Shown piece by piece: positions 16,299-59,900 of a stretch of 64,000 bases of DNA. This stretch comes from an uncultured candidate division Zixibacteria bacterium (GTDB lineage: Bacteria; Zixibacteria; MSB-5A5; GN15; FEB-12). Below the pieces are notes generated by a model. That model was given only the letters and a program-made list of their open reading frames with translations, searched no databases and was not told the DNA's origin. The stretch spans positions 1,024,001 to 1,088,000 of the forward strand of contig CAVTJJ010000004.1 of the NCBI GenBank assembly GCA_963735035.1. Reading direction: 5' to 3'. The first letter of the stretch is position 1. Every line of letters begins with the position of its first letter. The translations under genes and the position numbers were made by a program.

Positions 16299-18263
<1,965 letters not shown>

Positions 18264-22542: not shown

Positions 22543-25070
22543 ATGCGGTTGGAGGAAACACGATTGAGGACACCGTCCCCACTCTGTGTACTGGCGTGGC
22601 TGCTGGTACCAAGTCTGGGCACTCCGACCTATGCAGGGGTTAACGACAGTACGAAAGCACCGGAACGGGTCGTTCCGGAAATCCACGCCTACCGTGTGAA
22701 TCCGCACGCGCCGGTGATCGACGGCAATCTCGATGATCCGGTGTGGACTGGTTCGCACTTACAAAAGGTAGGCAACTTCACTCAAACCGATCCCGATGAG
22801 GGCAAGCAGCCCACCGAGTCGACCCTGGTCGCCGTTTCGTACGATGAGAATGCGCTCTACGTCGCGTTCTGGTGCTACGATTCGGAGCCCGACAAGATCG
22901 TGCGTCAACTCGTGCGGCGGGATCGATCGTCACCGTCAGACGCGGTAAGCCTTCGGGTCGACGCTTACCACGACCATCAGACCGGATTCGTATTTACGGT
23001 CCATGCGGCCGGGAACCAGCGTGACCTGCGGGTCTACAACAACACCAACATGGATGAATCCTGGGACGGCGTCTGGAGCTCGGCCGTCCGCGAACAACCG
23101 TGGGGATGGTCGGCTGAAATCGCAATTCCCTACCACTGTCTTCGGTTTCCCGAACAGGCTGAACACACTTGGGGGATAGACTTCATTCGCACCATCGGGC
23201 GCAAGAACGAATGGGAGTCCTGGGCCTTTGTGCCCAGCAAGGTGGGCGGGTTTGCGTCGAACTTCGGCCACCTGACCGGACTTACCGGAATTGTACCGAC
23301 ACGACACCTCGAGGTGATGCCATACGCGGTTTCGAATCTCGAGACCAAGCCGTCGGGTCGTTGGGTCGAAGGGAGTAATGTATTCGGAAATGCCGGAGTT
23401 GATGTCAAATACGGCATCTCCAGCAATCTTACGTTGGACGCCACCATCAATCCCGATTTCGGCCAGGTCGAGCTGGATCAACCGGTTTTGAATCTCTCGA
23501 CTTACGAGACCTGGTTCTCCGAAAAGCGACCGTTCTTTATTGAAGGCTCGGATCTGTTCGCTACTGATTTCACGCTCTTTTATTCTCGACGCATCGGCCG
23601 CTCACCGGTTTTCCGGTGAAGGACCCGTTTCTGTTCAAAGAACTGGAACGCCCACGCGCCTCGACAATCCTCGGTGCCGCCAAGCTGGCGGGGAAATTGG
23701 GAGACCGGACGTCAATTGCGGTTCTTGCAGCAGTCACCGACCGGGAGAAATCAAGATACGTCGATACCGTAGTTCATTACGAACAAGACAGCACCGGCCA
23801 ACTTGTCCCACGCGACACTACTTTCTCCTTCCATACCGGAGTGGTCGAGCCGCAGGCGGGGTACACGGTCGTGCGGGTCAAGCAGGACTTCCTCGCTCGT
23901 TCGTCGGCAGGTCTTATGCTGACGGTCGCAAGTCAGGATACCCGCTATCCAGCCGTGACCGGTGGGGGAGACTGGCGGCTCTACACGAACGATGGCAAAT
24001 GGTACGTGTCCGGTCAGTCGATATTCAGCCGGGTAGATCCGAATCACACCGGTTTCGGCTTGATGATGAGTGCCGGAAAGGATGCCGGCGAACATGTACT
24101 CGCTCAAGTCAGCCTGACTATCGAAGATCCGTACCTGAATATCAACCGGCTCGGTTACATCTCGCGCAACAATCGCCGTAGTTTCGGGTCGTGGGTGCAG
24201 TATCGTACCACCGACGATTGGTGGATTATCCGGAACTCATACAACAATTTCAACTTCTGGTACGAAAAGAACTACGAGGGAGTTGAAATCAGCAAGGGGG
24301 GAAACTGGAACCTCAATCTGGACTTCACCAACAACTGGTATCTAGGATGCGGAGCGAGCATTCAGGCGGAGAAGTACAACGACCTCGAAACCCGCGGGCA
24401 TGGTATTTGGCAGTGGCCGATTGCGCCAACTTACAGTTGGTGGTTCAACCTGAGCACTGATCCGCGCCGCATGTTTTCTTTCACACTCAACCCCGGTTCC
24501 GGTGGCGATCGCGGCGGTCTTTGGTGGGCGAATTATATCGGGGTCAATTTCCGTCCCCGATCCAACATGGAATTTTCGCTCGGCACGAACTATACCCGCA
24601 ATTTTCACGTCACCCGGTGGGTTGATAATCCCACCAACTCCACGACCGTTTTTGCTGACCTGGATCGCGACGAGATCAGCCTGAGTGCGAGCGCCGGCAT
24701 CATGTTCAGCCGCAATTTCTCCTGCCAGCTTTCGGCCGAGGGACTCCTTTCGGGGCTGGACTATCGAAACTATCGACCCTATCTCGGCGGCAACGAGTAC
24801 GGACCGCCGGGGTCATGGCCTGAGGGAACCTATTCGGGAGTGGGAAACAACCCCAACTTCGATTCCAACCTGGGGGCTCTCAACTCAACCTTACTGCTGC
24901 GGTGGGAATACCGACCGGGAAGTACTATCTATTTGGTTTGGACCAGGTCCAAGTCGGATTTCGATTCCAGGCGGAACCACCTGGATGTGAAGAAAGATAT
25001 GGAGCGATTCTTCTCCGCCGGGTCGGAGAACCTGTTTCTGGTCAAGGCCAGCTACTGGATGAATATCTGA
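22543..25070 (+). CDS. CBM9-like + DUF5916 outer-membrane protein (one apparent frameshift near 23610)
   Basis: PVIDGNLDDPVW, WSAEIAIP, TINPDFGQVELD, EKRPFFIEG, LFYSRRIG, then LRWEYRPGSTIYLVW...VKASYW in the next frame. Confidence 0.8.
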
Positions 25071-25474: not shown

Positions 25475-26200
25475 ATGGATCAAGACTTCCTTATCCAGGA
25501 GATAACGCAGGCCGAGACCCAGAAACAGGCCCGCAAGGTTCTTCACAAGCAGGAACACAAACCGCTTTGGAGAGAATACCTTGAAACAGCCACCCTCGCG
25601 CTCGTGGCGGCAGTGCTGTTGCGCCTGTTTGTGGTCTCAGCTTATCGCGTCAATTCCGCGTCGATGGAAGACACACTGCTTGACGGCGATTACATTTTCG
25701 TCAACAAGCTCGCCTACGAATTCGGCACCGAACCACAGCTCGGAGATATCATCGTCTTCGAGTACCCCAACAACCCGGAGAAGAAGTACATCAAGCGTAT
25801 CATCGCCGGGCCGGGGTCGCAGGTTCAGATAGCCGACAAGGTGGTGTTTGTCGACGGCAAAGTGGCCGCCATACCGGACCTGTCCAAGCACATCGACCAG
25901 CGGGTTATTCCCGGTGACCTGTCTTTCCGCGACAATTTCGGACCCTACACGGTGCCCGACGGCAACTATTTCGTCATGGGCGACAATCGCGATGACTCTC
26001 GCGACAGCCGTTTCTGGGGTTCGGTTCCTCGGGCCAATATCCGGGGCAAAGCGGTCTTCATCTACTGGTCGTGGGAACCGGACGCCAATCCTCCCGGATG
26101 GAGCTTTCCATACGTACACCATGTCGTCCAGTGGGTAGGGCATTTCCTGTATAATTTCCCGACCCATATTCGCTGGGACCGACTCGGTGTCTCGATCTGA
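25475..26200 (+). CDS. lepB: Signal peptidase I
   Basis: SASMEDTL (catalytic Ser), YIKRII (Lys), GDNRDDSRDSRFWG. Confidence 0.95.
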   Translation: MDQDFLIQEITQAETQKQARKVLHKQEHKPLWREYLETATLALVAAVLLRLFVVSAYRVNSASMEDTLLDGDYIFVNKLAYEFGTEPQLGDIIVFEYPNNPEKKYIKRIIAGPGSQVQIADKVVFVDGKVAAIPDLSKHIDQRVIPGDLSFRDNFGPYTVPDGNYFVMGDNRDDSRDSRFWGSVPRANIRGKAVFIYWSWEPDANPPGWSFPYVHHVVQWVGHFLYNFPTHIRWDRLGVSI

Positions 26201-26203
26201 CGC

Positions 26204-27601
26204 ATGCCGCTCGGACTCTATCTCCATTTTCCCTTCTGTCGCCACAAGTGCGCCTATTGTGATTTCTACAAGGAGCACTTCGACGTCTCTCTTGAAGCTC
26301 GCTTCTACGATGCCCTTCGCATCGAAACCGACTTAGCGGCAGAATCACTTCGTGACCACGACTCTCGTATTGCCACGCTCTATATAGGCGGCGGGACGCC
26401 GTCGCTGACGTCGACCGAGCGCTTTCGCATCTGGCTGGAGCAGGTGTGGAAGTTGTTCGGACGCGAAAGTCGGATCGAATTCTCGTTTGAGATCAATCCA
26501 GAGTCATGTAGCCGCGAGTTGCTACAATCACTGTTAGAACTGGGTGTGAATCGTCCGGTCTTCGGGATACAGTCGTTCGACCGCAAACTGCTCAATTTGC
26601 TCTCGCGCAGACACGAACTCCGTCAGGTGCATGAGGCGGTCTATCTGGCGAATGCGCTCGGCTTTGATAGTTTCGGATGTGATTTGCTATATGCGATGCC
26701 GGGGCAGACGGGGAAGATGCTGTCATCGGACCTGGACCAGTTGACCGATCTCAATCCGCCGCATATTTCGTTCTATCAACTGACGGTCGAAGAGGGGACC
26801 GAGCTGGACCGGATGGTCGAGCGGGGGACGGTGACACTGCCGGATCAGGATTTCGCGCAGGCGCTCTATTCGGCCGGGTATGAACATTTCAAAGACCACG
26901 GCTATGAGCGCTACGAAGTTTGCTCGTTTGCAAAAACAACCAACGCCCGAGTGGCCCACCCAAATGACAACGTGCCCGGCAGATGCCCACATCTGCCGAC
27001 GCAAAAGGATGAAAACAAGGTTGCGTCAGTTCCTGCGACCCGCCGCGGGTCGTGTGAACTGACGCCTTTGGATTTGCCTCGCTCAAGGCGTCAGGTCACA
27101 ACCCCGACTTCGTCGGGGTCAGGACCCCCGATCAAGTCGGGGGCAGGCTCTGACGCAACAATTCCATCCAGCCTCGTGAGTGGATATGCCCTTCCCGCGC
27201 ACGCCTGCCGCCATAACATGAACTACTGGACCGGCGGGGAGTATCTCGGTCTCGGCCCGGCAGCGCATTCGTTTCTGGACGGCCGTCGCTTCTCCAATGC
27301 GGCTAACCTGTACGAGTATCTTGATGCTCTGGAGAAGAGACAACGTCCCACAATCGAAGACCGCTCCGGCGAGAAAGAGCGAATCTTCGAAACTATCATG
27401 CTCGGCCTGCGGACGACACAGGGGATCGACCGGGTGTCGTTCGAGCGACGGTTCCATCGTCCGTTGTCCGACGCGATTGATCCTCGTCAATACGAACTTC
27501 TGTTGAACTCCGGCCACTTAGTTGACGTCGGCGATTTCCTTCGCCTCTCCGACGAAGCACTTATTCTGGCCGACGAAATCACGCAACGATTGTCCAGGTA
27601 G
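26204..27601 (+). CDS. hemW: Radical-SAM heme chaperone HemW (HemN-like) with an in-frame insertion
   Basis: YLHFPFCRHKCAYCDF, GGGTPS, HISFYQLTVEEGT, CRHNMNYW, YLGLGPAAHS. Confidence 0.9.
   Translation: MPLGLYLHFPFCRHKCAYCDFYKEHFDVSLEARFYDALRIETDLAAESLRDHDSRIATLYIGGGTPSLTSTERFRIWLEQVWKLFGRESRIEFSFEINPESCSRELLQSLLELGVNRPVFGIQSFDRKLLNLLSRRHELRQVHEAVYLANALGFDSFGCDLLYAMPGQTGKMLSSDLDQLTDLNPPHISFYQLTVEEGTELDRMVERGTVTLPDQDFAQALYSAGYEHFKDHGYERYEVCSFAKTTNARVAHPNDNVPGRCPHLPTQKDENKVASVPATRRGSCELTPLDLPRSRRQVTTPTSSGSGPPIKSGAGSDATIPSSLVSGYALPAHACRHNMNYWTGGEYLGLGPAAHSFLDGRRFSNAANLYEYLDALEKRQRPTIEDRSGEKERIFETIMLGLRTTQGIDRVSFERRFHRPLSDAIDPRQYELLLNSGHLVDVGDFLRLSDEALILADEITQRLSR
26936..27193. repeat. Palindrome-containing 258-bp in-frame insert within hemW
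   Basis: Lies between FAK and PAHACRHN; contains the reverse complement of the 5584-type palindrome (26971-27000) and ccccgatcaagtcgggggcaggctctg, also seen near 22049. Confidence 0.85.
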
Positions 27602-27718
27602 GTCAGGCCTACTTGGGGCCTGACAGAGAGTGATCGGAATGTCAGGCGTCGAGTCCGCCTGACCTACGAATCACACGGAGCGCCAGCTCCGTCACCCCGA
27701 TGAAAATCGGGGCCCAGC
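27598..27718. repeat. Direct repeat A (REPIN doublet plus palindrome), overlapping the hemW stop
   Basis: gtaggtcaggcctacttggggcctgaca...tgtcaggcgtcgagtccgcctgacctac; near-identical copy starts at 28677. Confidence 0.92.
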
Positions 27719-27742
27719 GTGGGCGTTGGGGCCTGTACCCGG

Positions 27743-28510
27743 CTAACGTCTCCCCACACGCGCGAATTCTTCGCGCTGCTGTTCGGAAACCCATTGAGCT
27801 ACTTCCACGGATCGAGCCAAGTCGACCACCCGCAGGCACACCAGGAGCCCCCATGCCGTCTCGTTGACCACTTTCCCCCGGCCGACGTTAGTTCGTCCTA
27901 CTACCTGTGTGGGCAGACACGGGTAGAACCCTTTGGCGAGGGCGGTAGGCTCGACCGCCGCGCCAAACTGAGTGGCAACGAGCTTCAAGAAGTCCCTGGC
28001 TCGATCTCGGTCGCGGCTTCGGAATTGCATCGTGACAAGGTCGGCCGGAAGACTTTTCGGTTCTTCCATCTTCAGAAGGCTCGACGTATCCACGTAGGTA
28101 CATATCCCGGAAATCAGATCCATTTTGAACACGGCCGTATCGGTTCTGAGAATCACCCGGAGGGTAAACGGCTTCTGTGGAAACCATATCTTGTCTGTCG
28201 GGCCGAATCGATTACGGGCCCGGAGCTTCAGGACAACCTCCGAGTCGGACTCGTTATGTTCGAAATCAACCATCGTATACTGACTCATGATCTCGAACCA
28301 GTAATTGCCGCTGGTGAGAGTGGGAACGTTGGGAGAGTCGCACACCTTGTAGAATATGAACGTGAACGGTTTGAGAGGGGTCGGTTTCGGCAACGGTCTC
28401 GCGTTGTCGGTCGGCGGCGGGGTGTCTTTGTCCACGTCCCAGCGTCCCTGGGCGTGCGATGTCGACATAAGGATGAGGAGGGCCGGTACGATGACAGCAA
28501 TTGGTCTCAA
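27743..28510 (-). CDS. Secreted hypothetical protein (cargo gene 1)
   Basis: GGAG RBS before TTG, signal peptide MRPIAVIVPALLILMSTSHA; no recognised domain. Confidence 0.6.
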   Translation of the reverse strand: MRPIAVIVPALLILMSTSHAQGRWDVDKDTPPPTDNARPLPKPTPLKPFTFIFYKVCDSPNVPTLTSGNYWFEIMSQYTMVDFEHNESDSEVVLKLRARNRFGPTDKIWFPQKPFTLRVILRTDTAVFKMDLISGICTYVDTSSLLKMEEPKSLPADLVTMQFRSRDRDRARDFLKLVATQFGAAVEPTALAKGFYPCLPTQVVGRTNVGRGKVVNETAWGLLVCLRVVDLARSVEVAQWVSEQQREEFARVGRR

Positions 28511-28676
28511 GTTGTCTCCGCGGAGCAGTGTCGCCGGTTTATCAATCTGATAGAGTAACGTCTGAGATTCGATTCTGTCCAGCCAAATTTGGTGGCGGGA
28601 TTATTGTGCTGGTCGGCAGGTTTCCGCCCCTGCCGCTTTGATGCCTTTCTGCGGCTTGACCGGGCACCCAAGGGTT

Positions 28677-28899
28677 GTAGGTCAGGCCTACTCGGGGCCT
28701 GACAAAGAGCGATCAGAATGTCAGGCGTCAAGTCCGCCTGACCTACGAATTACGGAGCGCAAGCTCCGTCACCCCCGAGACGTCGGGGATCTATGGGGTA
28801 ATCAAGTCCGATAGACCTAGGTCGTTACGCTTGGGGCCTGGCGGTCGCGAGTGGTCATGGATTCCCGACTGAATCGGGAATGACAGGACTGGCGTCCCG
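28677..28899. repeat. Direct repeat A' (28677-28775) overlapping direct repeat B (28752-28899)
   Basis: A' matches 27598-27698; B matches 30662-30809. Confidence 0.92.
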
Positions 28900-28949
28900 T
28901 ATCAAACTCCACCGGCAAGCGGGCGGGCCACCTGACGCTTGATCTACGA

Positions 28950-28978
28950 TTGACTTCACGAAAAGATCACATTATGTT
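28950..28978 (+). promoter_or_regulatory. Sigma70-like promoter of cargo gene 2
   Basis: TTGACT-17nt-TATGTT. Confidence 0.6.
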
Positions 28979-29052
28979 ATCTAATAATGGCATTATTCGA
29001 GGCCAAGATTCCGATCAGACTCTGTTGGTGTAGTCATTGTGGGAGTTGAGCC

Positions 29053-30483
29053 ATGCGTAGACTTCGGTGCTCACTAGTTATCAGTTCGTTGCTCTGGGCC
29101 ATCTGCATTACTAATAGCAGCGGCGCTTTGTCGTTGGACAGTCTTAAGAGTGCAGTTGCGCCGATTCTATCTACGTTCCGCGCCTACAGTGGGAGTGGCA
29201 GTCCCATGAGACTGGCAAGCGGAGTTCTGGTCGGCAACGATATGATTATGATCCCTGAGGACATGTACGACTGTGAATCGATGGACATGGAGGTCGCCGG
29301 TGATAAGTACGACCAGGTGTCGGACCTATTCGTCGCGGCAAGGAGGGGATTCGCAGTTGTCTCGATAGATCATGATTTTCCCGCGACTATTCGTTACGAT
29401 ACGGCGTTTCGCTGGGCAGCTGGTGACACGGTATACCTGGTTGCGAGGGATAGTGTCAATATCGGTTTGTATCCTGCTGCAATTCGCAGGTACGGGAATT
29501 TCGGGGAACCACCGTTTGCTGACACCAAGTACATGAGAACGAACCTGGATGAATTCGAGCTGCCCAATGATTTTGACTTCATGTTCAATCCTATAATGGC
29601 TGGCGACGGCAGAGTTGTCGGTGTATGTATTTCTCCTTATAGGGTCGACAGTACCATAGTCTTCGTCTCGGCTTCAGAAATCGTCAAGTTTTCGGCCGAC
29701 CGCTATCGTCCTATGCTTAAGCCGAGGGCAGGATCCTTCAATTGGTGGACGTCCGCGCTTGCACTGGCTACCAATCTCAGTTACAGGGCGATGATGACAG
29801 CGGATATCTGGTTTGTGCCATTAGTGGTTTTAGTCAGCTTGATTGTAGCGGCCTTTGGCCTCGCTTCGAATTATAGAACAGAAAGAAGAATGGCCACAGG
29901 GGCTGCATCTGAGGGGTCAACAGGTCGCTTCCAAGGCAGAAGAGCACGGATAGGCATCTGGCTGCTAATGGCTGTATTAGTCTCGATTGGGATTCTCTCC
30001 TTCCGGTCAAATAGTAGAAGAGCCGAGCTCAAAATATCCGAGTCGGCCAGAGAACTGGCAGGACCGCTGCCAACAGAGGAGCAATGGAAGATGGCTCTTA
30101 ATCAATTCTTAGAGGCTGAAAGTCGTACCGGTCTCTTCATGCTGTTGACCGGTGACGAATGTGCTCTCAAGTATGACGTCGTCAAGACCAACGGACGTTG
30201 GTTCTTCTGCATAATCAGCAAGCGAAAAGACACCCGGGCGGTCTCTGTAGCTTGTGTAGGGAAACTTGAAGGCGATGAAATCTACTCTGTTTGGTTGCGG
30301 ACCAAGAACAACCGTCTTCAAGGGGAAGCCCTTCAAAGCTACCTTCGCCTATCTGAACGTGATTCGCTCTGGTCGATGTACGGAAAGAGAGGATTCTGGG
30401 AAGAAGAGAGCGCGCTAGAGGCGATGTATGAGGAGTGCGAGAAGAATGGTGCAATGATCTCTATACTCAGCTTGCACCCATAG
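29053..30483 (+). CDS. Membrane protein with a degenerate trypsin-like N-terminal domain (cargo gene 2)
   Basis: Signal peptide; ASGVLVG and NPIMAGDGRVVGV resemble trypsin-2 fold segments but lack the GxSGG serine; two TM helices. Confidence 0.55.
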   Translation: MRRLRCSLVISSLLWAICITNSSGALSLDSLKSAVAPILSTFRAYSGSGSPMRLASGVLVGNDMIMIPEDMYDCESMDMEVAGDKYDQVSDLFVAARRGFAVVSIDHDFPATIRYDTAFRWAAGDTVYLVARDSVNIGLYPAAIRRYGNFGEPPFADTKYMRTNLDEFELPNDFDFMFNPIMAGDGRVVGVCISPYRVDSTIVFVSASEIVKFSADRYRPMLKPRAGSFNWWTSALALATNLSYRAMMTADIWFVPLVVLVSLIVAAFGLASNYRTERRMATGAASEGSTGRFQGRRARIGIWLLMAVLVSIGILSFRSNSRRAELKISESARELAGPLPTEEQWKMALNQFLEAESRTGLFMLLTGDECALKYDVVKTNGRWFFCIISKRKDTRAVSVACVGKLEGDEIYSVWLRTKNNRLQGEALQSYLRLSERDSLWSMYGKRGFWEEESALEAMYEECEKNGAMISILSLHP

Positions 30484-30518
30484 TTGAGCATTCGAGAGTC
30501 AAATCGCCCCCCCCCCCG

Positions 30519-30630
30519 CACTAAGTGATTGCCCCACCTTAACCAATCAACCCTATATTCCCGGCATGGATTTCTTCGAAGAGGAGCAACCCGAACATAA
30601 GCGCGCGTCGGTCGCGCCACTCGCCGGCCG
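30519..30630 (+). pseudogene. Orphan duplicate of the rarA promoter region and first 22 codons
   Basis: ATG at 30566 encodes MDFFEEEQPEHKRASVAPLAGR; matches 32372-32481 with mainly synonymous changes. Confidence 0.9.
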
Positions 30631-30661
30631 GTGGCCCACCCTTCGGGTGGGATTGCATACG

Positions 30662-30905
30662 ACGGAGCGCTAGCTCCGTCACCCCCGAGACGTCGGGGGT
30701 CTATGGGGTAATCAAGTCCGATAGACTTAGATCGTTACGCTTGGGGATTGTCGGTCGCGAGTGGTCATGGATCCCCGACCAAGTCGGGGATGACGGGATT
30801 GGCGGCCCGGTTCAATTGAGAGCGGTCTCTTTCTGCGTCATGCTGAGCCTGTCGAAGCATGACGGCGGACGAACCTAAGCCACACTTCGACAAGCTCAGT
30901 GTGAC
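30662..30905. repeat. Direct repeat B' (30662-30809) plus a ctgagc..tcgaag inverted doublet (30837-30905)
   Basis: 148 bp colinear with B; gtcatgctgagcctgtcgaagcatgac / cttcgacaagctcagtgtgac. Confidence 0.9.
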
Positions 30906-30963
30906 TTGTGGGGTACCGGGTTCTACTTGCGTGCAGCCCTGTCATTTAGTAGCTTCTTCCATC

Positions 30964-32352
30964 ATGCAAGAAACATTTGCGAGGACTACAGTTGAAGCAC
31001 TCAGGCGACTCGTTGAGTCCGGGATGACACTCATTGTCGAGGCAAATGAGCACAAGTTCCCAACCGAGATGGCAGAGCGTTTGCGTGTTGATGACCAAGG
31101 AAATCTTGGTATTGCTAAGGAAATCCGGCCGAATACGTGGGAGTGCGCAAGTACCTTGTCACATCTCTTACAGGATCATCCGGATTGTGAGATAGCCAAG
31201 CGGGCGATAGAGGCGGATCCGCTGATTGCCTCCCACCTGGGAAAAATGGTGGGCACAGAAATGGAGTGCATTCGTCTCACGTCAGAAGATGTAGTTATGA
31301 AGTTTCTTTTGGAATTCCTTGGTGATGGAAATGTTGGAGGACTGTTGGACTGCGCGGTGTGTGAGGGAACACGTCAAGATGAACTTGAAGAGGCCTCTTT
31401 CACACGAGCGCTCAGCCGCTTTCAGAATGCCTTTGCAGGCAAGTCGGTTGAGACCGAGATTTTTACAATTCTCGACAGTTTCCAGATGGAAGGCGGCCGG
31501 TTGGAATTGGAGCCGGGTCTTGTGTTAGAAGGGTTGAGCAAAGAGGCGGTGGCCCTGCTTTGGAATACGAATTCTCACGTCCGTCAGTTCTATTCACTTT
31601 GGGAGTTTCCTCGCAAGGCAATCGAGGAGGTTTCCGGCGTGCTCTGGCTACGGGTCCAGACTCCTAAGATCGTGTACGATGAGAAACTGCCGCCGCAAGA
31701 TACGAAGTACACAATCAAAGACGCCATCGACTCTCTGCTATTGGTGACGAACGCATTGCATCTAGTCAAGGCGGGGGCTGTCACGATCGGTCCGATATTC
31801 GCCGGTGCCGCGTTTCCATTCCTGCATGAATCGACCTACACGCTCCCGCGATATGGTTTCAGTGCGTTCGGAGGACAGAGATACAAGCTAGAGGCGACAG
31901 ATCATCAGTTGCTAATAGCAATCGTTGGGGCTTTGCGCAAGGCTTTACAAGGCACCCGCAATAATCTGCTGACGGGTGTGAAACGCATTGGATACGCGAG
32001 CGAACGTGTCTCCAGTGAAGACGCTCTACTAGATACCATGATTGCGTTGGAAGCGCTTGTACTAAGTGGAAAGGGCGATTCGAAATATCGTGGCGAACTC
32101 AGGTTCAGACTTTCGCTTTATGTAGCTCGGCTTCTTGCCGAACACGAGAATGAACGAAAGCGTTTGTTCGAGCTTGTACGAGGGGCCTATGATTTGCGAA
32201 GCAAAGTCGTGCACGGCGATACGCTGGACAGGCATGAAGAGGCAAGAGTAGGTGAGATTTCAGAAATAGCCCGCAAGGTTGCCTTGGAACTCCTCAGGAG
32301 GACGGCTGCGAACGAATCTCCTCCTGACTGGGATTCGCTGACTCTGAAATGA
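30964..32352 (+). CDS. ApeA-like HEPN domain protein (cargo gene 3), candidate defence RNase
   Basis: DTMIALEALV...ELRFRLSLYVARLL...AYDLRSKVVHG (RxxxxH); TTGCGT-17-TAGCTT lies 8 nt before ATG 30964. Confidence 0.75.
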   Translation: MQETFARTTVEALRRLVESGMTLIVEANEHKFPTEMAERLRVDDQGNLGIAKEIRPNTWECASTLSHLLQDHPDCEIAKRAIEADPLIASHLGKMVGTEMECIRLTSEDVVMKFLLEFLGDGNVGGLLDCAVCEGTRQDELEEASFTRALSRFQNAFAGKSVETEIFTILDSFQMEGGRLELEPGLVLEGLSKEAVALLWNTNSHVRQFYSLWEFPRKAIEEVSGVLWLRVQTPKIVYDEKLPPQDTKYTIKDAIDSLLLVTNALHLVKAGAVTIGPIFAGAAFPFLHESTYTLPRYGFSAFGGQRYKLEATDHQLLIAIVGALRKALQGTRNNLLTGVKRIGYASERVSSEDALLDTMIALEALVLSGKGDSKYRGELRFRLSLYVARLLAEHENERKRLFELVRGAYDLRSKVVHGDTLDRHEEARVGEISEIARKVALELLRRTAANESPPDWDSLTLK

Positions 32353-32416
32353 GCCCTTAACGCTACCCCCTCACTAAGTGATTGTCCCGCCGATTCGTAA
32401 CCCCTATATTCCCCGC

Positions 32417-33784
32417 ATGGATTTCTTCGAAGAGGAGCAACCCGAACATAAGCGCGCCTCCGTCGCGCCCCTCGCCGACCGCATGCGGCCCCGCTCATTC
32501 GATGAGTTCGTCGGCCAGCAGAAAATTGTCGGCAAAGGCGCCCCGTTGCGCAAAGCGATCGAAGAAGACCGGGTGCCATCGATAATTTTCTGGGGCCCCC
32601 CCGGCACCGGCAAGACCACTCTCGCACACCTGATCGCCGCCCACACCAAAGGGCAGTTCGTGCCGTATTCGGCAGTTACGTCCGGCATCAAAGAAATCAA
32701 GGCGCTCATCAGCAAGTCGGGCGACTACTACAAGATGTCCGGCCGTCGCACCTACGTGCTCGTCGACGAAATCCACCGCTTCAACAAGGCGCAGCAGGAC
32801 GCGTTCCTGCCGTATGTCGAGAAGGGGGACATCGTCCTGATAGGAGCCACCACCGAGAACCCGTCGTTCGAAGTCAACGCGGCGCTCCTCTCACGAATGA
32901 AAGTGTACGTGCTCGACCGTCTCGCGCCCGAAGATATCGCGCATGTCATAACGACCGCGCTCAAAGACGACGAGCGCGGGCTCGGCAAGGCGGGCATCGA
33001 AATCGACGCGGACGCGCTCGAACTAATCTCAGTCGCGGCGGACGGCGATGCACGGCGGGGCCTTTCGTTGCTCGAAGCGGTAGCGTCGTTTGTCGGCAAG
33101 GAGCACAAGATCACGCTCGACGCCGCACGCGAGGTGCATCAGAAGGGGACGTTCGTTTACGACAAAGTGGGGGAAGAGCATTACAACCTAATTTCGGCGT
33201 TGCACAAAACTTTGCGCGACGGCGATCCCGACGCGGCGCTCTACTGGCTGGCGCGGATGCTCGAATCGGGGGAAGACCCGCTCTATGTAGTGCGGCGGTT
33301 GATTCGGTTCGCGACCGAAGATATCGGCCTGGCTGATTCGTACGCGCTGACACTCGCGCTCAACGCCCGCGACACGTACCACTTTCTCGGTTCACCTGAA
33401 GGAGAGTTGGCCATCGCGCAGTTGGTGATCTACATGGCCTGTGCACCGAAATCGAATTCGGCCTATATCGCGTTTGACAAGGCCAAGAAGGACGCCGCCG
33501 AATTTGGTTCGCTGCCGGTCCCGCTGTGGATTCGGAACGCTCCGACCGGGTTGATGAAAGAGCTCGGCTACGGCAAGGGGTACAAATACGCGCACGAATT
33601 CGAGGGGGCGCTGGTCGAGCAGGAGCATTTCCCCGATCAGCTTAAGGGGCGAATCTACTATGAGCCCAAGGGCGTCGGGCGGGAAGACCGGCTGGCGGAG
33701 TATGTTCAGAAGTATCGCGCCTTCCGTCACCAGGCGGAGAAAAACCCCAAGCCGAACCCAAAACCGACCGATAAGACTGAATGA
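32417..33784 (+). CDS. rarA: Replication-associated recombination protein A
   Basis: [50 protein letters not shown]. Confidence 0.96.
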   Translation: MDFFEEEQPEHKRASVAPLADRMRPRSFDEFVGQQKIVGKGAPLRKAIEEDRVPSIIFWGPPGTGKTTLAHLIAAHTKGQFVPYSAVTSGIKEIKALISKSGDYYKMSGRRTYVLVDEIHRFNKAQQDAFLPYVEKGDIVLIGATTENPSFEVNAALLSRMKVYVLDRLAPEDIAHVITTALKDDERGLGKAGIEIDADALELISVAADGDARRGLSLLEAVASFVGKEHKITLDAAREVHQKGTFVYDKVGEEHYNLISALHKTLRDGDPDAALYWLARMLESGEDPLYVVRRLIRFATEDIGLADSYALTLALNARDTYHFLGSPEGELAIAQLVIYMACAPKSNSAYIAFDKAKKDAAEFGSLPVPLWIRNAPTGLMKELGYGKGYKYAHEFEGALVEQEHFPDQLKGRIYYEPKGVGREDRLAEYVQKYRAFRHQAEKNPKPNPKPTDKTE

Positions 33785-33816
33785 ACCGACCATCCGTTCG
33801 AGGGTTTAATAGAATT

Positions 33817-35079
33817 ATGCGCCGATTCCTGCTCAGCCTTGCTGTCTTGCTCGTCCTGCCCTGGTCAACCCGGGCGGCCAGTATACTCATCCCGATGGAT
33901 TCGACTCAGACCAATCATCTCAAGGCGTACGGCGTCGTTTTCAAATCCCTGCAGAAGGGGTACAAGTCGGAATGGCTGCTCAACTATCGCGGGGGATCGT
34001 TTCTGATCGATGAGACCCAGGACGTGCCGAACATGTGTCTGCTGATGGGGGTCTCGTACGAAAGCGCCGATCAGGGCAAGATCGCGGACATCTATCGCAC
34101 GATCGAGGTCGAAAACATGGAGCGGGTGGAACTGGAGAAGGCGCCGTCGATTGCGGTCTATGTCCCGCCGTCGAATCGACCCTGGGACGATGCGGTCACA
34201 CTCGCACTGACTTACGCCGAGATCAAGTACGATGTCATCTGGGACGAGGATATCCTGACCGGCAAACTGAACGATTACGACTGGTTGCATTGCCACCACG
34301 AGGATTTTACCGGGCAGTACGGCAAGTTCTACGGCGCGTTTCGGAACGAGCTCTGGTACCAGGCCGACGTGAAAGCGAACGAGGCGATGGCGGCCAAGAT
34401 GGGGTACACGAAAGTCTCGGAGCTCAAGCGTGACGTAGTTAAGACGATTTACGACTTCGTGCGCCGGGGCGGGTTCCTCTTCTCAATGTGTTCTGCGCCG
34501 GAGACAATGGATATCGCGCTGGCCGCCGACGGAGTTGATATCGTGCCGCGCGAGTTCGACGGCGACCCGGTCGATCCGGGATGCCAGGAGAAACTCGATT
34601 TCAGCAAGACGTTTGCCTTCGAGAATTTCAAGATTAATACCGACCCGCTGGTGTATGCCCGGTCGGATATTGACACCTACCCGGACCGGATTGTCAGATT
34701 TCCGTCCCCTGAGTTGGATTACTTCTTGCTGTTCGAGTTCTCGGCCAAGCTCGATCCGGTGCCAACTATGTTGGTGCAGGATCATGTCAACACGATCAAC
34801 GGCTTCATGGGGCAGGTGACCGGGTTCCGCAAGTCGCTCCTGAAGAAATACGTGACAGTTCTGGCGCAGCCGGAGAATTTCGACGAAGTTCGGTACATCC
34901 ACGGCAATCTCGGTCGCGGGACGTTTACGTTTTTGTCGGGGCACGATCCGGAGGATTACCGTCACATGGTGCACGATCCGCCGACCGACTTGAGTTTGCA
35001 TCCGAATTCGCCGGGGTATCGGTTGATTCTCAACAACGTCTTGTTTCCCGCCGCGAAGAAGAAAGAGCGGAAGACGTAG
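33817..35079 (+). CDS. Conserved exported hypothetical protein of FCB-group bacteria (often labelled asparagine synthetase B; function unverified)
   Basis: Signal peptide; NHLKAYG, WLLNYRGGSF, WLHCHHEDFTGQYGKFY, GHDPEDY, SPGYRLILNNVLFPAA. Confidence 0.7.
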   Translation: MRRFLLSLAVLLVLPWSTRAASILIPMDSTQTNHLKAYGVVFKSLQKGYKSEWLLNYRGGSFLIDETQDVPNMCLLMGVSYESADQGKIADIYRTIEVENMERVELEKAPSIAVYVPPSNRPWDDAVTLALTYAEIKYDVIWDEDILTGKLNDYDWLHCHHEDFTGQYGKFYGAFRNELWYQADVKANEAMAAKMGYTKVSELKRDVVKTIYDFVRRGGFLFSMCSAPETMDIALAADGVDIVPREFDGDPVDPGCQEKLDFSKTFAFENFKINTDPLVYARSDIDTYPDRIVRFPSPELDYFLLFEFSAKLDPVPTMLVQDHVNTINGFMGQVTGFRKSLLKKYVTVLAQPENFDEVRYIHGNLGRGTFTFLSGHDPEDYRHMVHDPPTDLSLHPNSPGYRLILNNVLFPAAKKKERKT

Positions 35080-53770: not shown

Positions 53771-53950
53771 AGAACATCTGACAATTGGTCTAACGCACGT
53801 TTTACGCGAATAAATACACATGAAGCCGTTCTTGGCTAGTTTTATAAGTTGGACAGGAAAATCGGGACCGCCCTAGACGTATGTCTTTGGTTGCCCGTTT
53901 TCTATGGACGAGAAAACAGGTAACGCACAAGAGAGTAACACGGAGTGCAC

Positions 53951-56900
53951 ATGTATCAGCCCAAACTTTTCCGGTTTGCGTTCCAGCCCCTCTGCGCCAC
54001 ATCGAATTTCACAAGACCAATCAAGACGCTGTTCTTGCTTGGTCTTTTTGCTGTGGTATTGGGTGCCGGTTCCTCGGTTAATGCCGCGGCAACTATTCGA
54101 ACTGATTCGCTGGCCTATGAACCGGGTTCGACCGTCGGGATCATCGGCACCAGCTTCATGGCCGGTGAAAACGTTAACCTGGTCGTGACCTACATTGACG
54201 GAACCCCGCTTGCTCCGGAAGTCCAGAGCAGCTGGACCGTCGTGGCCAGCGGCACCGGCACGATTGAAACCGGTGGTACATCCGGTTACAGCGGTCTGGA
54301 CGGAGGAGAGTTCAAGGGGTTTTCCACTTTCTGGACGATGTTCACGGGTGCGGCACCGGGGGATTCACTCCTGCTGACCGCCACGGGCGGAACCTCGGGA
54401 TACGTGGCAACTACGACGCTCCTTTGTCCGTCAAGCAACTTCGACCAGCTTCAAAATGGCACTCCAACGAACCCGTCGTGGGCAAATGGCAACATCAACC
54501 AGAATAATTCCTGCTATACTGAGGGAAACTCAGTCCCGTTCCGATTCTTCGTGCAAAGCCTCAGTTCCAATTCCACGCATACATTCCAGATATCGTTTGC
54601 TGCCACGAACGGTGGAAAGCACGCTTACGACTATCTTACCCAGTACAACCTGAGCGAGTCGGGGGCGATCATCACGGTGGGCGGTGAATGTAGTTCGGTA
54701 AGCCAGGCAGCGCCGGGTGATTGTGCGACCCCGGTCGCCGTGGTGGCGCTTCGTGATCCTCGTCTAAGCGCCAACTACAACTCCACACCCGGACCGGAGT
54801 TGTCGGGTATCCTTAATCTCTCGTTCCCGATCGACGGCCCTGGCAGTCTGTTTGCCTACAACGCCACCAACGTTACGATCAGCAAGTTCACGATCGGAGG
54901 AACGGTCTCCAATCGCACCTTGACGGCGACCGTTACCTTCAAGACCCTTCATAGCGGCAGTGCCGGTTTCTTCTGGGGCGGGCACATGGCTGAAGGTGTG
55001 ACTCCCGGCTGGGGTGTCAACATGGGGGCCGGTTCGATCACCGGTTCTTCATGGCATATGGATGCCGGTAAGGTCGACGGGTCCGGCGGGATGGTTGGCC
55101 GATCCGTTCAGAAGGGTACTATTTGTGTCGCCCCGACGGTTACTCTTTCCTGCAGTGCCGGTCCTTATTGTACCAACACCACCCAGACCTGCTCTGCGAC
55201 GGCCGGAGCTGGGACTTACTTCTGGACGATCACCGGTGGTACGCTTCTCACCGGCCAGGGTACCAATTCGATCACTTATAAGATTACCGCCTTGGCCGGA
55301 AGCCCGGTTACCGTCGCGGTGAACGCGAGCAACAATAACGGTGGCTGTGCCGGGAGTACTTGCAGCACCGACGCGAGCACACAGTTTACGGCCGAGGACT
55401 GCTGTACCGTGGCGATTACGTGCCCTCCGACCGCTACCGTTGCTTGCAATCAATCCATCAATCCCAGCAATACCGGAACGGCTACTTTCACGACTACCGG
55501 TTCCTGCCCGCTTCCGATAACTGTAAGTTACACCGATACCGAGACCGCCGGTGCCTGCCCGCAAGCGAAGACTGTTTCCCGTCTGTGGAAGGCCACCGAC
55601 GCCAACGGCCAGGTACGTGCTCAGTGCACCCAGACGATCAATGTTATTGATAATGTCGCGCCGGTGCTTTCCAGCGCTCCGGCCAATGTGACGGTTGAAT
55701 GCAGCAGCATTCCGGCTCCGGCCACTCTGACCGCCACCGACAACTGCGATCCGTCGCCGACCGTTGCAATGACGCAGACCACGACTCCTGGTTCCTGCGC
55801 CCAGCGGTATACTTTGACCCGCACCTGGACCGCGACCGATCACTGCGGCAACGCTTCGTCACGCTCGCAGGTCATTACGGTACAGGACACGCAGGCTCCT
55901 ACCATTACGTGTCCGCAGACAGTCACGGTGCAATGCGCCAGTCTGGTGCCGGCGCCTAATACGGCCCTGGTAGTAGTGAGCGACAACTGTGATCCGGCTC
56001 CGGTGGTTGCGTTTGTGAGCGACGTTTCCAACAATCTGACCTGCCCCGAGACGATCACCCGCACCTATCGGGCGACCGATGCCTGTGGCAACTCGGCCAC
56101 TTGCACCCAGCAAATCGTCGTTCATGATACGACCGCGCCGGTTGTGACTTGCCCTGCTCCTGTTTCGGTGCAGTGTCTGGCCGACGTGCCCGCTCCGAAT
56201 CTGGCTTTAGTGAGTGTGACCGACAATTGCGATCCGAACCCGGTCAAGGCCTGGGTGAGCGATCAACTTGGCACCACTACCTGTCCCAAGACCATTACCC
56301 GGACTTACAAAGCTACCGACGCCTGTGGTAACATCGGAAGCTGCACGCAGACTATTACAATAGATGATACTACGCCGCCGGCGATTACCTGCCCGGCTAA
56401 TACGTCGGTGTTGTGCGGCCAGTCCAGCGATCCTGCCCACACCGGCTATGCGACTGCAACCGACAACTGTACCCCCACTGGCAGTATCGTGATTACATAC
56501 GCAGACGTAGCCAACGGCGTAATTACCCGCACCTGGACTGCGACCGATGCCTGTGGCAACCAATCGACTTGCGTTCAAACTATCAACACTCCTCCGGATA
56601 CGGCTCCGCCGGTAATTACATCCTGTGCGGCGCCGGTAACGGTTGACTGCTTCGCCGATGTTCCCGCGCCGAACCCGGCGCTGGTCGTGGCCACTGATGC
56701 CTGTGACCCGAATCCGGTGACTACTTTTGTAAATGACGTACAAACCGGTTCGAGCTGTCCGTATACGGTTACCCGGACTTATCGCGTAACGGACGCTTCG
56801 GGCAACTCGTCAACCTGTACTCAGACAATTACAATCGACGACAACACGCCGCCAGTATTGGTCGGCACGCCGGCCAATGTAACGGTGAGCTGCGATGCTA

Positions 56901-59900
56901 TCCCGGCCCCGGCGACAGTGACGGCGACCGACAATTGCGCCGGAGTGACGGTCAACTATGACCAGTCCGATACTCCCGGCGCCTGTGCTCAGGCCAAGAC
57001 GATCACGCGCACCTGGACCGCGACCGATTTCTGCGGCAACCAGACGGCCTACTCGCAGACTATCACGGTTGTAGACAACACCGCGCCGGTGATTACGAGC
57101 TCTCCGGGTGCTGTCTCAGTACAGTGTGTAGCGAATATCCCGGTTCCTAATACTACCCTGGTAACGGCCACCGACAATTGCGATCCTGCTCCTGTGATTT
57201 CGTTCGTGAGCGATGTTTCCAACGGCCTGACTTGTCCGGAGACTTTCACGCGCACCTACAAGGCCCTGGATGCCTGTGGCAATGTGTCGTTCTGTACGCA
57301 GACGATAACGGTTCACGATACCACGCCGCCGACGATTTCCGGTCCGGCACCGGTCTCAGTTCAGTGTCTGACAGCAGTCCCGACACCCAACCCGGCTCTG
57401 TGCTCGGCGAGCGACAACTGTGACCCGACGCCCACTATCACCTTCGTGAGCGATGTGCCGAACGGTTCCGGCTGCCCGATAACCATCACTCGCACCTACA
57501 ATGCGACTGACGATTGCGGCAACTCGGTGACTTGTACTCAGACAATTACGGTTCACGACCAGACCGCGCCGCAGATCACCGACCCCGCGCCGGTCTCCGT
57601 ACAGTGTATGGGAGAAGTGCCTCAGCCGAATCCGACCCTGTGCACGGCTACTGACAACTGCGACCCGACCCCGACCGTCACGTTTGTGAGCGACGTCCCG
57701 AACGGCTCCGGTTGCCCTATGACTATCACTCGCACCTACAAGGCGACCGACGATTGCGGCAATGAGGCGACCTGTACGCAGACGATCACGGTGAATGACC
57801 AGACGCCGCCGCAAATTACCTGTCCGGCGCCGGTTTCGGTCCAGTGTCTGTCTCAGGTGCCGACACCTAACCCGGCTTTGTGTGTGGCGACCGACAACTG
57901 TGATCCGAATCCGACCGTTGCTTTTGTGAGCGACGTTCCGAATGGCACCGGTTGCCCGATGACCATCACTCGTACTTACAAGGCGACGGATGATTGCGGC
58001 AACGAGGCGACCTGTACGCAGACAATCACGGTCAATGATCAGACCCCCCCGCAGGTAACTTGTCCCGCGCCGATATCGGTACAGTGCGCGTCGCTGGTGC
58101 CGGCTCCGAACACGGCTCTGTGTATGGCGACCGACAACTGTGACCCGAATCCGGTTATCGCTTTCGTGAGCGACGTCTCCAACGGTCTGTCGTGTCCGGA
58201 GACGATCACCCGTACTTACAAGGCGACCGACGATTGCGGCAACGTCGCGACCAGCACTCAGACGATTACGATACATGATTTGACTGCGCCGCAGTTGACC
58301 TGCCCGGCGCCGGTAACGGTTCAGTGTATGTCGGCGGTTCCGCAGCCGAACCCGACACTGTGCACGGCCACTGACAATTGCGATCCGACTCCGACCGTTA
58401 CTTTTGTAAGCGATGTTCCGAACGGTTCCGGTTGTCCTCTGACCATCACGCGTACCTACAAGGCGACCGATGATTGCGGCAACGAGACATTCTGCACGCA
58501 GACGATTACGGTGAACGACCAGACCCCGCCGCAGATTTCCTGTCCGGGTCCTCTTGCTTTCTCCTGCGTAGGCGACGTGCCGCAGGCGAATCCGGCTCTT
58601 TGCACTGCCACCGACAATTGTGATCCGAATCCGGTGGTGGTGTGGGTGAGCGATGTGCCTCTGGGCTCGTGCCCGATGACCATAACTCGCACTTACAAGG
58701 CTACTGATAATTGCGGCAATCAGGCTACCTGTCAGCAGATCATCACGGTGCATGACCAGACGCCACCACAAATGGTGGGATGTCCGGCCAACGTGACCGT
58801 GGAATGCAACAATATCCCGGCGCCGGCCAATGTGACGGCCACGGACAACTGTTCCGGTGTAACGGTTGCCATGGTGGAGACCACCATTCCCGGTGCGTGC
58901 GCTCAGTTCTACACTATCACTCGCACATGGACGGCTACCGACGGCTGTAACAATCATGCTTCATGCCAGCAGACCATAACGGTCCATGACACCACGCCGC
59001 CGCAAGTTACCTGTCCCGATGCGATTACGGTTAACTGTCTTGGCGAGGTGCCGTCGCCAAATACGGCGCTTGTCATAGCCAACGACAATTGCGATCCCAA
59101 TCCCACGATCACTTTCGTGTCCGACGTTCGCGAAGGGACCGGCTGCCCGATGTACGTCGCTCGCACTTACCGTGCGGTCGATGCCTGTGGCAATGCGGCT
59201 ACCTGCACGCAGATGATTACTATAGATGATCGGTTGGCGCCGCAATTGTCCGGTTGCCCGCAGAATGTCACAGTGAGCTGTGGCCAGATTCCGCCGGTCG
59301 CTACCGTGACGGCCACCGACAACTGTGACGGTACGGTGAGCGTCACTCTCAACGAGGTTACTACTCCCGGGAGCTGTACTTACAACTACACGGTAACTCG
59401 TACCTGGACCGCGTCGGACATCTGTGGGAACCAGGCGCAGTGTCAACAGGTCATTACGGTTCGTGACGACACCGACCCTGAGATGACCTGCCCGGCCCCG
59501 CTCACGGTACAGTGTATCGGCGAAGTGCCACAGCCGAATCCGGCATCGGTGACCGTGTCCGACAACTGCGATCCGCATCCGGTCGTCTCGTTCGTGAGCG
59601 ACGTGCGCGGGCCTCAAAGCTGTTCGACCCTGATCATGCGTACTTATCGGGCCGTGGATGCCTGTGGCAACGAGGCCACTTGCACGCAGATGATTACGCT
59701 GAACGATGAGACACCGCCTGTCTTTACAACTTTCCCAACCGATCAGAACTTGTCCCAGTGTCAACCGACTCAGATTTGTTTGCCGGTGGTGGCTTCCGAC
59801 AATTGCCTTGGCAGTGTGGTCTATTCCGTGACGGCCGGTCAGGGCGCCATAGCCAACGGGCAATGGTGTTTCACACCGACCGCTTCGACCTCATTCGCGG

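Follow-up and report, generated by a model that had tools for sequence, protein, structure and literature searches.

The interval between hemW and rarA in an uncultured candidate division Zixibacteria bacterium is a variable accessory-gene slot in a hairpin-rich genome. It was studied in a stretch of 64,000 nucleotides (the window; C4:1024001-1088000, given as contig and position) of a 6-contig, 3.6-Mb metagenome-assembled genome, called G000 below. The order is hemW, array A, gene c1, array A'B, gene c2, repeat R, array B', gene c3 and repeat R' at the start of rarA, as an earlier note on this DNA had described it, and self-comparison found the three repeat pairs A/A', B/B' and R/R' at the positions given there. 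We favour, with a probability of about 0.55, the reading that the interval is a slot similar to minimal mobile elements, that gained a module through recombination anchored by homology on one side and joined illegitimately, on the other, to the end of a hairpin element. This reading builds on the allele-like divergence of R and R', the patchy occurrence and low GC content of the cargo genes, the position of the joint at a hairpin terminus and a mirror case at hemW in the sister species G002.

R (30505..30630, plus strand) is a displaced copy of the rarA promoter (GTGATTG..TATATT) together with the first 20-21 codons of the gene, and R' (32358..32481, plus strand) comprises the working promoter, with a sigma70-like site at 32382-32410, and the first codons. 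The two copies align at 88% between 30513-30538 and 32366-32391 and at 94% between 30551-30630 and 32402-32481. Only two copies of R (125 bp) exist in the genome, which indicates a true local duplication. Differences affect 4 of the 65 shared coding bases; three of the four lie in codons 1-20, where each is a synonymous change at the third position. At two of these three sites it is the displaced R, not the working copy, that holds the state of G002 and of the related loci L062 and L065. The -35 and -10 boxes are intact, while the 20-nt spacer between them differs at about half of its positions and R alone is 2 nt longer. The orthologues in L062 and L065, with rarA genes 90.6% identical, display the same profile (59/63 at the start, about 9 differences in 20 spacer positions), and A/A' (91%) and B/B' (89%) have diverged to the same level as R/R'. 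Both copies share derived codons (EEEQPEHK) against all relatives, which suggests that they come from close lineages. We interpret this pattern as that of two alleles about 90% apart, which is what R and R' look like, rather than of a fresh duplication. The earlier suggestion that B-c2-R and B'-c3-R' are two alleles of one slot captured in tandem is thus supported by the synonymous differences, the spacer and the L062/L065 profile. Template and variable repeats as in diversity-generating retroelements were considered for R/R' and rejected, since the differences are not adenine-specific. Independently of the duplication, the promoter GTGATTG..TATATT is kept across the family (rarA starts L002-L030) with the ATG 8-9 nt past the -10 box, a short distance that suggests a leaderless rarA mRNA.

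The displaced fragment borders a hairpin (30630..30655, minus strand) of the CCCACC..GGTGGGCCACC family, the conserved terminus of which adjoins the truncated rarA sequence. The 65 genomic copies of this family, when aligned, are conserved as far as GGTGGGCCACCC(g) and no further, which is the very point at which the rarA fragment begins in the slot copy. Array B' and the preceding hairpin form a composite unit: the hairpin is followed by the same sub-units, u3 and u4, at C3:591341, C3:988294, C4:70695 and C4:3375, and this recurrence at four places indicates that R is fused to the natural end of a composite array. As the joint between R and the hairpin is non-homologous, at least one illegitimate join took place. 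The mirror case in G002 concerns the other flank (L032 3987-4204). Here a second copy of the final 79 nt of hemW, 82% identical, lies 139 nt downstream, the frame and the stop are kept, and the conserved FLRLSDEALILADEITQ codons display only synonymous changes; a 60-nt REPIN (a doublet of repetitive extragenic palindromic, REP, sequences) of the GGGTGG.CCACCC hairpin family lies flush between the two copies of the hemW tail. Both cases, R at the GGTGGGCCACC terminus and the hemW tail of G002 at the same family, agree with the proposal of the earlier note that the conserved neighbour acts as a homology anchor and the hairpin as the joint. When 2814 gene calls were crudely screened for gene ends that recur in low copy within 6 kb, 40 rows resulted, and the rarA case stood out among them; most rows lie in known blocks of tandem paralogues, and the one further row inspected (C3:455147) is a tandem paralogue as well.

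Comparison with related genomes confirms the variability of the slot. Among 41 of them, rarA was found in 40 and the N-terminal half of hemW in 36. The order lepB-hemW-gap-rarA-next gene is kept in eight genomes of two families, those in which hemW and rarA adjoin (our own, G014, G015, G024, G027, G033, G036 and G039), with a gap of 141 bp to 4.8 kb. In G021, G022 and G040 the two genes are distant on one contig, and in the other genomes they are on different contigs. The gap contents, which comprise MCP, MBL-fold, TSP3-repeat, YaaH and DUF4097 proteins besides unknowns, are unrelated among the seven relatives, and unrelated contents were likewise seen in L062, L065 and G002. Aligning the interval across relatives, as had been proposed, therefore reveals a variable slot and not identical fixed cargo. 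A metagenome scan with the rarA promoter pattern returned 19 stretches, three of which are genus relatives. In L062 a Trypsin_2-like gene of 262 aa stops 20 nt ahead of the rarA promoter; upstream of this gene lie a B-like half-array, a CCCACC..GGGTGGGCCACC hairpin and a promoter-like stretch, a region that aligns with the one upstream of c2. In G002 an array running from u3-u4 to the end of B lies upstream of a different small insert, likewise followed by the rarA promoter. The succession of B-like array, different cargo and rarA promoter is accordingly present twice in G000 and again in L062 and G002, each time with different cargo, as expected if the cargo changes while B and R are kept.

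Some genes next to rarA in relatives deserve mention in their own right. A 440-aa protein encoded upstream of rarA in G001 (L033 7049-8371) matches more than 70 places of G000 with its residues 62-151, at 50-72% identity, and this very large paralogous domain family includes repeat-bracketed genes at C3:213283 and C4:1011716. DNA comparison of two other bracketed loci with G001 and G002 was too noisy to give a view of synteny, the bracketed genes carrying a multi-copy domain. In G002 three tandem 21-nt units, coding for YELAEFD in one frame, lie inside a small open reading frame (ORF) just upstream of rarA (L002 428-490).

On the favoured reading, a segment consisting of the hairpin, B', c3, R' and the rarA start, from a lineage about 90% identical, would have been added to the locus and not swapped in. 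On one side, it may have paired homologously within rarA or its promoter; on the other side, it may have been joined non-homologously at the terminus of a hairpin element, a process known as homology-facilitated illegitimate recombination. A single crossover of a circularised fragment would equally give the same product. Either way the resident promoter and 21 codons (R) would have been pushed upstream, behind c2. A single crossover of this kind, in the 100 bp over which the arrays are homologous, could also account for the A/A' pair around c1, and flanks composed of a B-type array and the rarA start may enable an exchange of cargo among related lineages. What the sequences themselves show is the repeats and their genome-wide families, the variable slot, the allele-like divergence and where the joints lie; how recombination proceeded, which way the transfer went and whether a hairpin nuclease helped to make the ends are inferred from these.

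Several observations weigh against this reading. The relatives of c3 in six other genomes are not near rarA. The left neighbours of the slot in L062 and G001 are not hemW, so the slot marks a rearrangement breakpoint as well. A donor haplotype with B'-c3-R' alone was not found, and c3 is absent from the three genus relatives among the 19 stretches. The allele argument uses few substitutions, three synonymous ones in R/R' and 5-6 in G002. A/A' and B/B' could equally have arisen from a gene landing in a pre-existing tandem array, and such arrays, with periods of 80-350 bp, are common in this genome. Finally, the contiguity of the locus is that of the assembly, and the variation was compared between species and genera, not between strains.

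The arrays themselves are composed of dispersed hairpin families. A and A' align at 92% (27598-27674 and 28677-28753) and further on at 96% (27675-27698 and 28752-28775), and B and B' at 89% (28752-28905 and 30662-30815). Within the latter pair 148 aligned bases at 89.9% identity match the 15 substitutions counted by hand in the earlier note, and the compensatory stem pair it had pointed out is readable in the sequence (ATTCCCGAC..ATCGGGAAT in B, ATCCCCGAC..GTCGGGGAT in B'). Array A (27598..27717, plus strand) consists of a REPIN of two inverted GTAGGTCAGGC REPs (27598-27667), the hairpin u3 (27675-27692) and a CGTCA-tagged hairpin (27690-27717); the REPs are 28 nt long, GTAG-tagged and inverted, and the array folds as DNA at -39.4 kcal/mol (z -9.1). 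Array A'B (28677..28940, plus strand) contains a REPIN (28677-28746), u3 (28752-28769), a CGTCA hairpin (28767-28794) and the remaining part of B to 28905, which ends with a TGTCA-tagged, dRS3/NTS-like hairpin (28856-28886, minus strand; ATTCCCGA..TCGGGAAT); after B follows a degenerate CCACC..GGGCCACC hairpin (28906-28938). Array B' (30662..30815, plus strand) contains u3, a CGTCA hairpin beginning at 30677 and a minus-strand CGTCA hairpin ending at 30795. All CGTCA-tagged hairpins, at 27690, 28767 and 30677 on the plus and 30795 on the minus strand, have oriented non-palindromic flanks. A palindrome of 69 nt between B' and c3 (30837..30905, no strand assigned; z -3.9) belongs to another dispersed family with the core GCTGAGCCTGTCGAAGC, the core words of which have 14 to 18 copies.

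The sub-units of A and B are multi-copy, with 74-82 and 29-52 blast matches in the genome, respectively. Hairpins with a GTAGGTCAGGC[CG] stem were counted by script in 67 copies genome-wide, besides other GTAGGTC classes. Perfect hairpins with stems of at least 7 are far more frequent than in a control of reversed sequence, both for the GTAGG tag (149 vs 19) and for the CGTCA tag (151 vs 13), and self-comparison finds 8.5% of the genome repeated. Because their sub-units occur genome-wide, we regard the arrays as mosaics of ordinary repeats, similar to bacterial interspersed mosaic elements, and not as ends made for this locus. The idea that the repeats are special cassette ends is consequently not borne out, REP/REPIN and NTS/SRM-type hairpins being found throughout the genome. 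Comparison of positions 26000-34000 with Rfam at E up to 1 gave chance-level matches only, all well under the gathering scores. Elsewhere in the genome a second stack is present at C3:591186-596005 (L040 4148-9051); its three composite arrays are B-like and share 89-98% identity over 119-171 nt, and the genes with which they alternate are unrelated and lie on either strand. Many composite hairpin units are also repeated in tandem, with a period of about 80-350 bp (C4:97552-98004, C3:165548-165770, C4:101986-102181 and others).

The cargo consists of three genes without mutual similarity (blastp, 1e-3), for which reason we rejected the possibility that the modules are tandem duplicates. Gene c1 (27743..28510, minus strand) encodes a secreted-looking protein of 255 aa with a signal-peptide-like start and no family match; it has two paralogues at 49% in the genome and, counting G000 here and in the following figures, relatives in 10 of the 160 genomes of the order. 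Gene c2 (29053..30483, plus strand) encodes 476 aa with hydrophobic middle segments and a C-terminal domain that has a paralogue, and its relatives occur in 5 of the 160 genomes. The N-terminal part of c2 is trypsin-like by language-model features only (score 0.92), which we treat as a lead. With a BLASTP E of 0.01 over 20 residues we do not call c2 an orthologue of the trypsin-like cargo of L062. Gene c3 (30964..32352, plus strand) encodes 462 aa; its reading frame is open from 30859, inside the 30837-30905 palindrome, and homologues suggest 30964 as the true start. Relatives of c3 are present in 7 of the 160 genomes and amount to eight proteins including itself, one of them named HEPN. The structural model of c3 (pLDDT 85) matches with its residues 331-452 the HEPN protein 8xdj (Z 10.1, rmsd 3.0, 106 aligned), as well as Csm6 8jbc (Z 9.4) and a further HEPN chain (Z 9.3), values that are not decisive for helical bundles. 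The protein carries the motif RSKVVH, and the form RS.(V/L/I)VH is kept in 7 of the 8 aligned family sequences, the H being invariant. With a modelled four-helix fold and an R-x4-6-H motif the C-terminal domain of c3 can be described as HEPN-like. No match at E 0.001 or better was obtained by Foldseek of the c3 model against the PDB, the profile of the c3 family had no match among PDB sequences, and nothing meaningful was found for c1-c3 in Pfam, NCBIfam or PADLOC.

The GC content of c2 and c3 is about 50-52%, compared with 57-61% in the flanks. Relatives of the three genes lie away from the slot, at 17 other places that carry none of A, B and R, so that no further unit of cargo plus repeat was found there; only 2 of these 17 loci have a tagged hairpin nearby. 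It had been claimed that at least two cargo genes carry their own sigma70-like promoter. A site matching the consensus does precede c2 (TTGACT, 17 nt, TATGTT; 28950..28978, plus strand), but the second site (32382-32410) precedes rarA and no other cargo gene. The number of such sites, 4 in 5.2 kb against 3.2 +/- 1.7 in shuffles, is not above chance.

Both kinds of genes that had been suggested as companions of such hairpins are present in the genome. Y1_Tnp (PF01797), the domain of RAYT-like transposases, has six matches genome-wide, among them one at C6:22391 with inverted GTAGGTC REPs (GTAGGTCGAAACC) on either side; no GTAGGTCAGGC REPs were found within 1.5 kb of any of the six. Five small single-domain GIY-YIG (PF01541) genes (L171-L175; C6:20161-20379, C5:31487-31702, C4:993345-993566, C3:441868-442059 and C3:918016-918192) are each located between copies of their own hairpin-repeat family, in inverted or direct order. 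Two of these ORFs read as 93 and 102 aa; the copy at C3:918016 has an in-frame TGA and is surrounded by u4-type hairpins like those of A, in inverted order. The GIY-YIG proteins had no match to solved structures by sequence. Judged by domain and context, the small GIY-YIG genes and their hairpins look like Ssn/SRM pairs. Genes for ComEC and DprA are present as well, which does not by itself demonstrate competence.

As noted earlier, the window holds no sign of an integrase or transposase: 46 of its 47 ORFs of at least 120 aa were scanned without a match to such families, the ORF of 2693 aa at 53945-62026 being left out. The genome as a whole has just three tyrosine recombinases, none of them closer to the window than 206 kb, and no sign of cassette excision or re-insertion was seen.

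Both flanks of the slot are conserved genes. The left one, hemW (26204..27601, plus strand), is identified by its Pfam radical SAM and HemN_C domains, and its TAG stop (27599-27601) falls within the GTAG tag of the first REP of A. Between these two domains hemW carries an in-frame insert of about 85 residues (approximately 26950-27200) made of REP-like hairpins; it has 64 blast matches genome-wide, is shorter at the same point in G002 and is lacking in the relatives of the family. The right flank is rarA/mgsA (32417..33784, plus strand; Pfam MgsA_C 1.3e-63), with its true ATG at 32417. Further upstream in the window, ftsH is read as three overlapping ORFs (N-terminal part, AAA domain and M41 peptidase; 16495-18263) and a DUF5916 gene as two (22543-25070), the likely cause being residual indel errors of the assembly, or else real frameshifts.

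Repeat pairs in the genome show an orientation bias at short range. Pairs of 60-400 bp with at least 85% identity and a spacing of 0.5-4 kb are direct in 38 cases and inverted in 3, and the ratio of direct to inverted pairs of 50-400 bp is 34:30 at 6-50 kb and 164:199 at 50-500 kb. Independent bracketing loci, defined by two non-coding repeat copies 0.5-6 kb apart with at least half of the intervening DNA coding, number 23, of which 18 are direct and 5 inverted; three of the 18 are from the hemW-rarA slot and one or two are tandem gene duplications. The bias fits insertion by recombination at arrays and also genes landing inside tandem arrays. A transcription-linked orientation was rejected as its cause because A and A' point the same way although the gene between them is reversed, and because genes of the C3 stack lie on different strands, and a replication-linked orientation because of the 34:30 ratio at 6-50 kb.

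A more far-reaching explanation is that hairpin arrays and single-strand nucleases (Ssn-like GIY-YIG, RAYT) cut and define the module ends, which would amount to a dedicated, integrase-free capture of genes throughout the genome; we consider this unlikely. Incoming or replicating single strands would be cut at hairpin termini, their ends joined beside a homologous anchor, and genes would pile up between direct arrays, a course of events to which we give little credence, as we do to the corollary that displaced gene ends are the footprints left behind. The two gene-end remnants, that of rarA in G000 and that of hemW in G002, have their joints precisely at the terminus of a single hairpin family, and this, together with the excess of direct over inverted bracketing loci and the second stack on C3 with its three B-like arrays, is what such a mechanism would produce. 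Moreover, SsnA is reported to cut single-stranded DNA beside NTS hairpins and to alter the integration of transforming DNA (PMC11893778), and genes for ComEC and DprA are at hand. However, the effect of SsnA described there is to lower integration and not to raise it, the R joint is about 50 nt away from the nearest CGTCA hairpin, and the 17 other loci with cargo relatives have no A, B or R and in only two cases a tagged hairpin. The gene-end screen, not every row of which was inspected, mainly returned tandem-paralogue blocks, and the direct bias can come from insertions into tandem arrays. It is possible, though to our mind equally doubtful, that the repeats are passive, i.e. that arrays occupy intergenic DNA which is not essential and increase in number there, that the genes came in independently of one another, and that R is an in-place duplicate that diverged later. 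The ubiquity of hairpins, the 8.5% of repeated sequence and the common tandem arrays are readily explained in this way, and Pseudomonas REPs are described as marking old, stable DNA, with strain-specific genes in REP deserts (PMC3390384). Uniform decay, however, misfits R/R', in which about 10 of about 17 differences fall into the 20-nt spacer and codons 1-20 differ only synonymously; the outgroup states are kept by the displaced R and not by the working copy, and the same kind of remnant recurs at the other flank in G002.

Two further explanations appear less credible still. An assembler may have strung together two co-existing strains with different cargo, as might be feared for a metagenome-assembled genome in 6 contigs in which the split ftsH and DUF5916 ORFs suggest residual indel errors, and in which the similarity within repeat pairs, about 90%, is what strain variants would show. 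Yet the fusion of rarA codon 21 to a hairpin terminus offers no homologous switch point and must exist on a real molecule, and the independent assembly of G002 has the same kind of joint at hemW; these two points render a chimera quite improbable, and the 1.6-Mb contig implies long reads able to span 4.8 kb. Alternatively, c3 with R/R' as att sites could be a decayed integrative element, similar to a cis-mobilizable element (CIME), inserted at the rarA start by a tyrosine or serine recombinase. Integration into a gene end typically yields direct repeats of this kind, about 125 bp long, by which the target gene is restored. But no recombinase was found in the 1.85-kb unit, among the window ORFs scanned, or among 16 ORFs of relatives (13 interval ORFs of six related genomes and three upstream of rarA in G001), and the presumed att copies diverge most in the spacer at their centre, just where identity would be expected of a crossover core, so that we find this explanation barely tenable.

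Integrons and clusters of attC sites lacking an integrase (CALINs) present a row of unrelated genes, with folded repeats between them, next to a fixed point. The hemW-rarA locus is similar in that single genes without relation to each other follow one another beside a fixed point, with folded repeats in between, and the earlier note had compared it functionally with an integron. This likeness concerns the outcome, stacked accessory genes, and not the mechanism: c1 is on the opposite strand and the repeats are dispersed. Unlike in integrons, no IntI is present among the 46 window ORFs scanned and no sign of site-specific exchange was seen. By their distribution the bounding hairpins also differ from attC sites, as they belong to families of tens to about 150 copies genome-wide, and in contrast to promoterless cassettes in one orientation c1 lies on the minus strand and a promoter-like site precedes c2. 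Integrons and CALINs are among the systems compared in PMC5361080.

GTAG and CGTC are described as two superfamilies of short palindromic repeats (PMC3733652), and REP, REPIN and interspersed mosaic elements are reported with RAYT transposases (PMC3116915, PMC3337134). The GTAG-tagged 28-nt hairpins of the slot resemble these in their inverted doublets (27598-27667, 28677-28746), their mosaic clusters and the presence of some copies within genes; the genome also contains one RAYT-like gene with REPs on either side. They differ in that none of the six Y1_Tnp genes checked is a cognate RAYT adjoining the GTAGGTCAGGC family. Whereas strain-specific genes of Pseudomonas are described as avoiding REPs (PMC3390384), the accessory genes here lie between arrays.

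The neisserial NTS CGTCATTCCCGCGMAVGCGGGAATCYRG is reported to be cut in single-stranded DNA by the GIY-YIG nuclease SsnA (Chenal et al. 2025, PMC11893778). CGTCA hairpins with oriented flanks around genes (NTS-gene-NTS) are similar to this system, the architecture matching the printed NTS consensus, and so are the small GIY-YIG genes between hairpins in the same genome, a likeness drawn from domain and context; by contrast, the hairpin at the R joint belongs to another family. NTS/SRM- and REP-type hairpins, the in-vivo roles of which are debated, are hereby placed at recombination joints in Zixibacteria, a phylum in which they are not known to have been studied. The same paper suggests that other NTS configurations may modulate recombination differently (PMC11893778). 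If hairpin nucleases make the joints described here, that suggestion becomes testable; otherwise the locus is a variable slot of the ordinary kind in a genome rich in repeats.

Minimal mobile elements (Saunders and Snyder 2002, as cited in PMC3898611) are described as whole-gene cassettes between conserved genes, exchanged solely by homologous recombination, and their variable genes in Neisseria are reported to lie among dRS3/NTS hairpins as well (PMC11893778). The hemW-rarA site agrees with them in its position between conserved genes and in holding different genes in each genome. It differs in that the variation is between species and genera, in that modules are stacked rather than only swapped, and in the non-homologous joint and displaced promoter copy, for which homologous recombination alone is insufficient. 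In this respect the locus is closer to the displacement or "orphan" arrays at type VI secretion effector-immunity, rhs and cdi loci, for which homology-facilitated illegitimate recombination has been proposed (PMC5361080). In both a conserved gene is the anchor next to which a new module is placed, and the older module is displaced but retained, along with a remnant of the anchor; R is such a retained anchor remnant and has the allele-like divergence expected of it. In contrast to those arrays, the remnant comes from a housekeeping gene, of which it comprises the promoter and 5' end, and not from the 3' end of a toxin, the cargo is unrelated instead of effector-immunity pairs, and the joint lies at the terminus of a hairpin repeat.

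The displaced rarA start and the hemW tail of the sister species represent a footprint, at the level of sequence, of accessory-gene addition without an integrase. The locus thus combines things known separately, namely REP/REPIN and NTS/SRM hairpins, a variable slot and homology-anchored illegitimate displacement. Two points are new compared with these systems, both in Zixibacteria: what is displaced is the promoter and 5' end of a housekeeping gene, and the joints are flush with a hairpin terminus.

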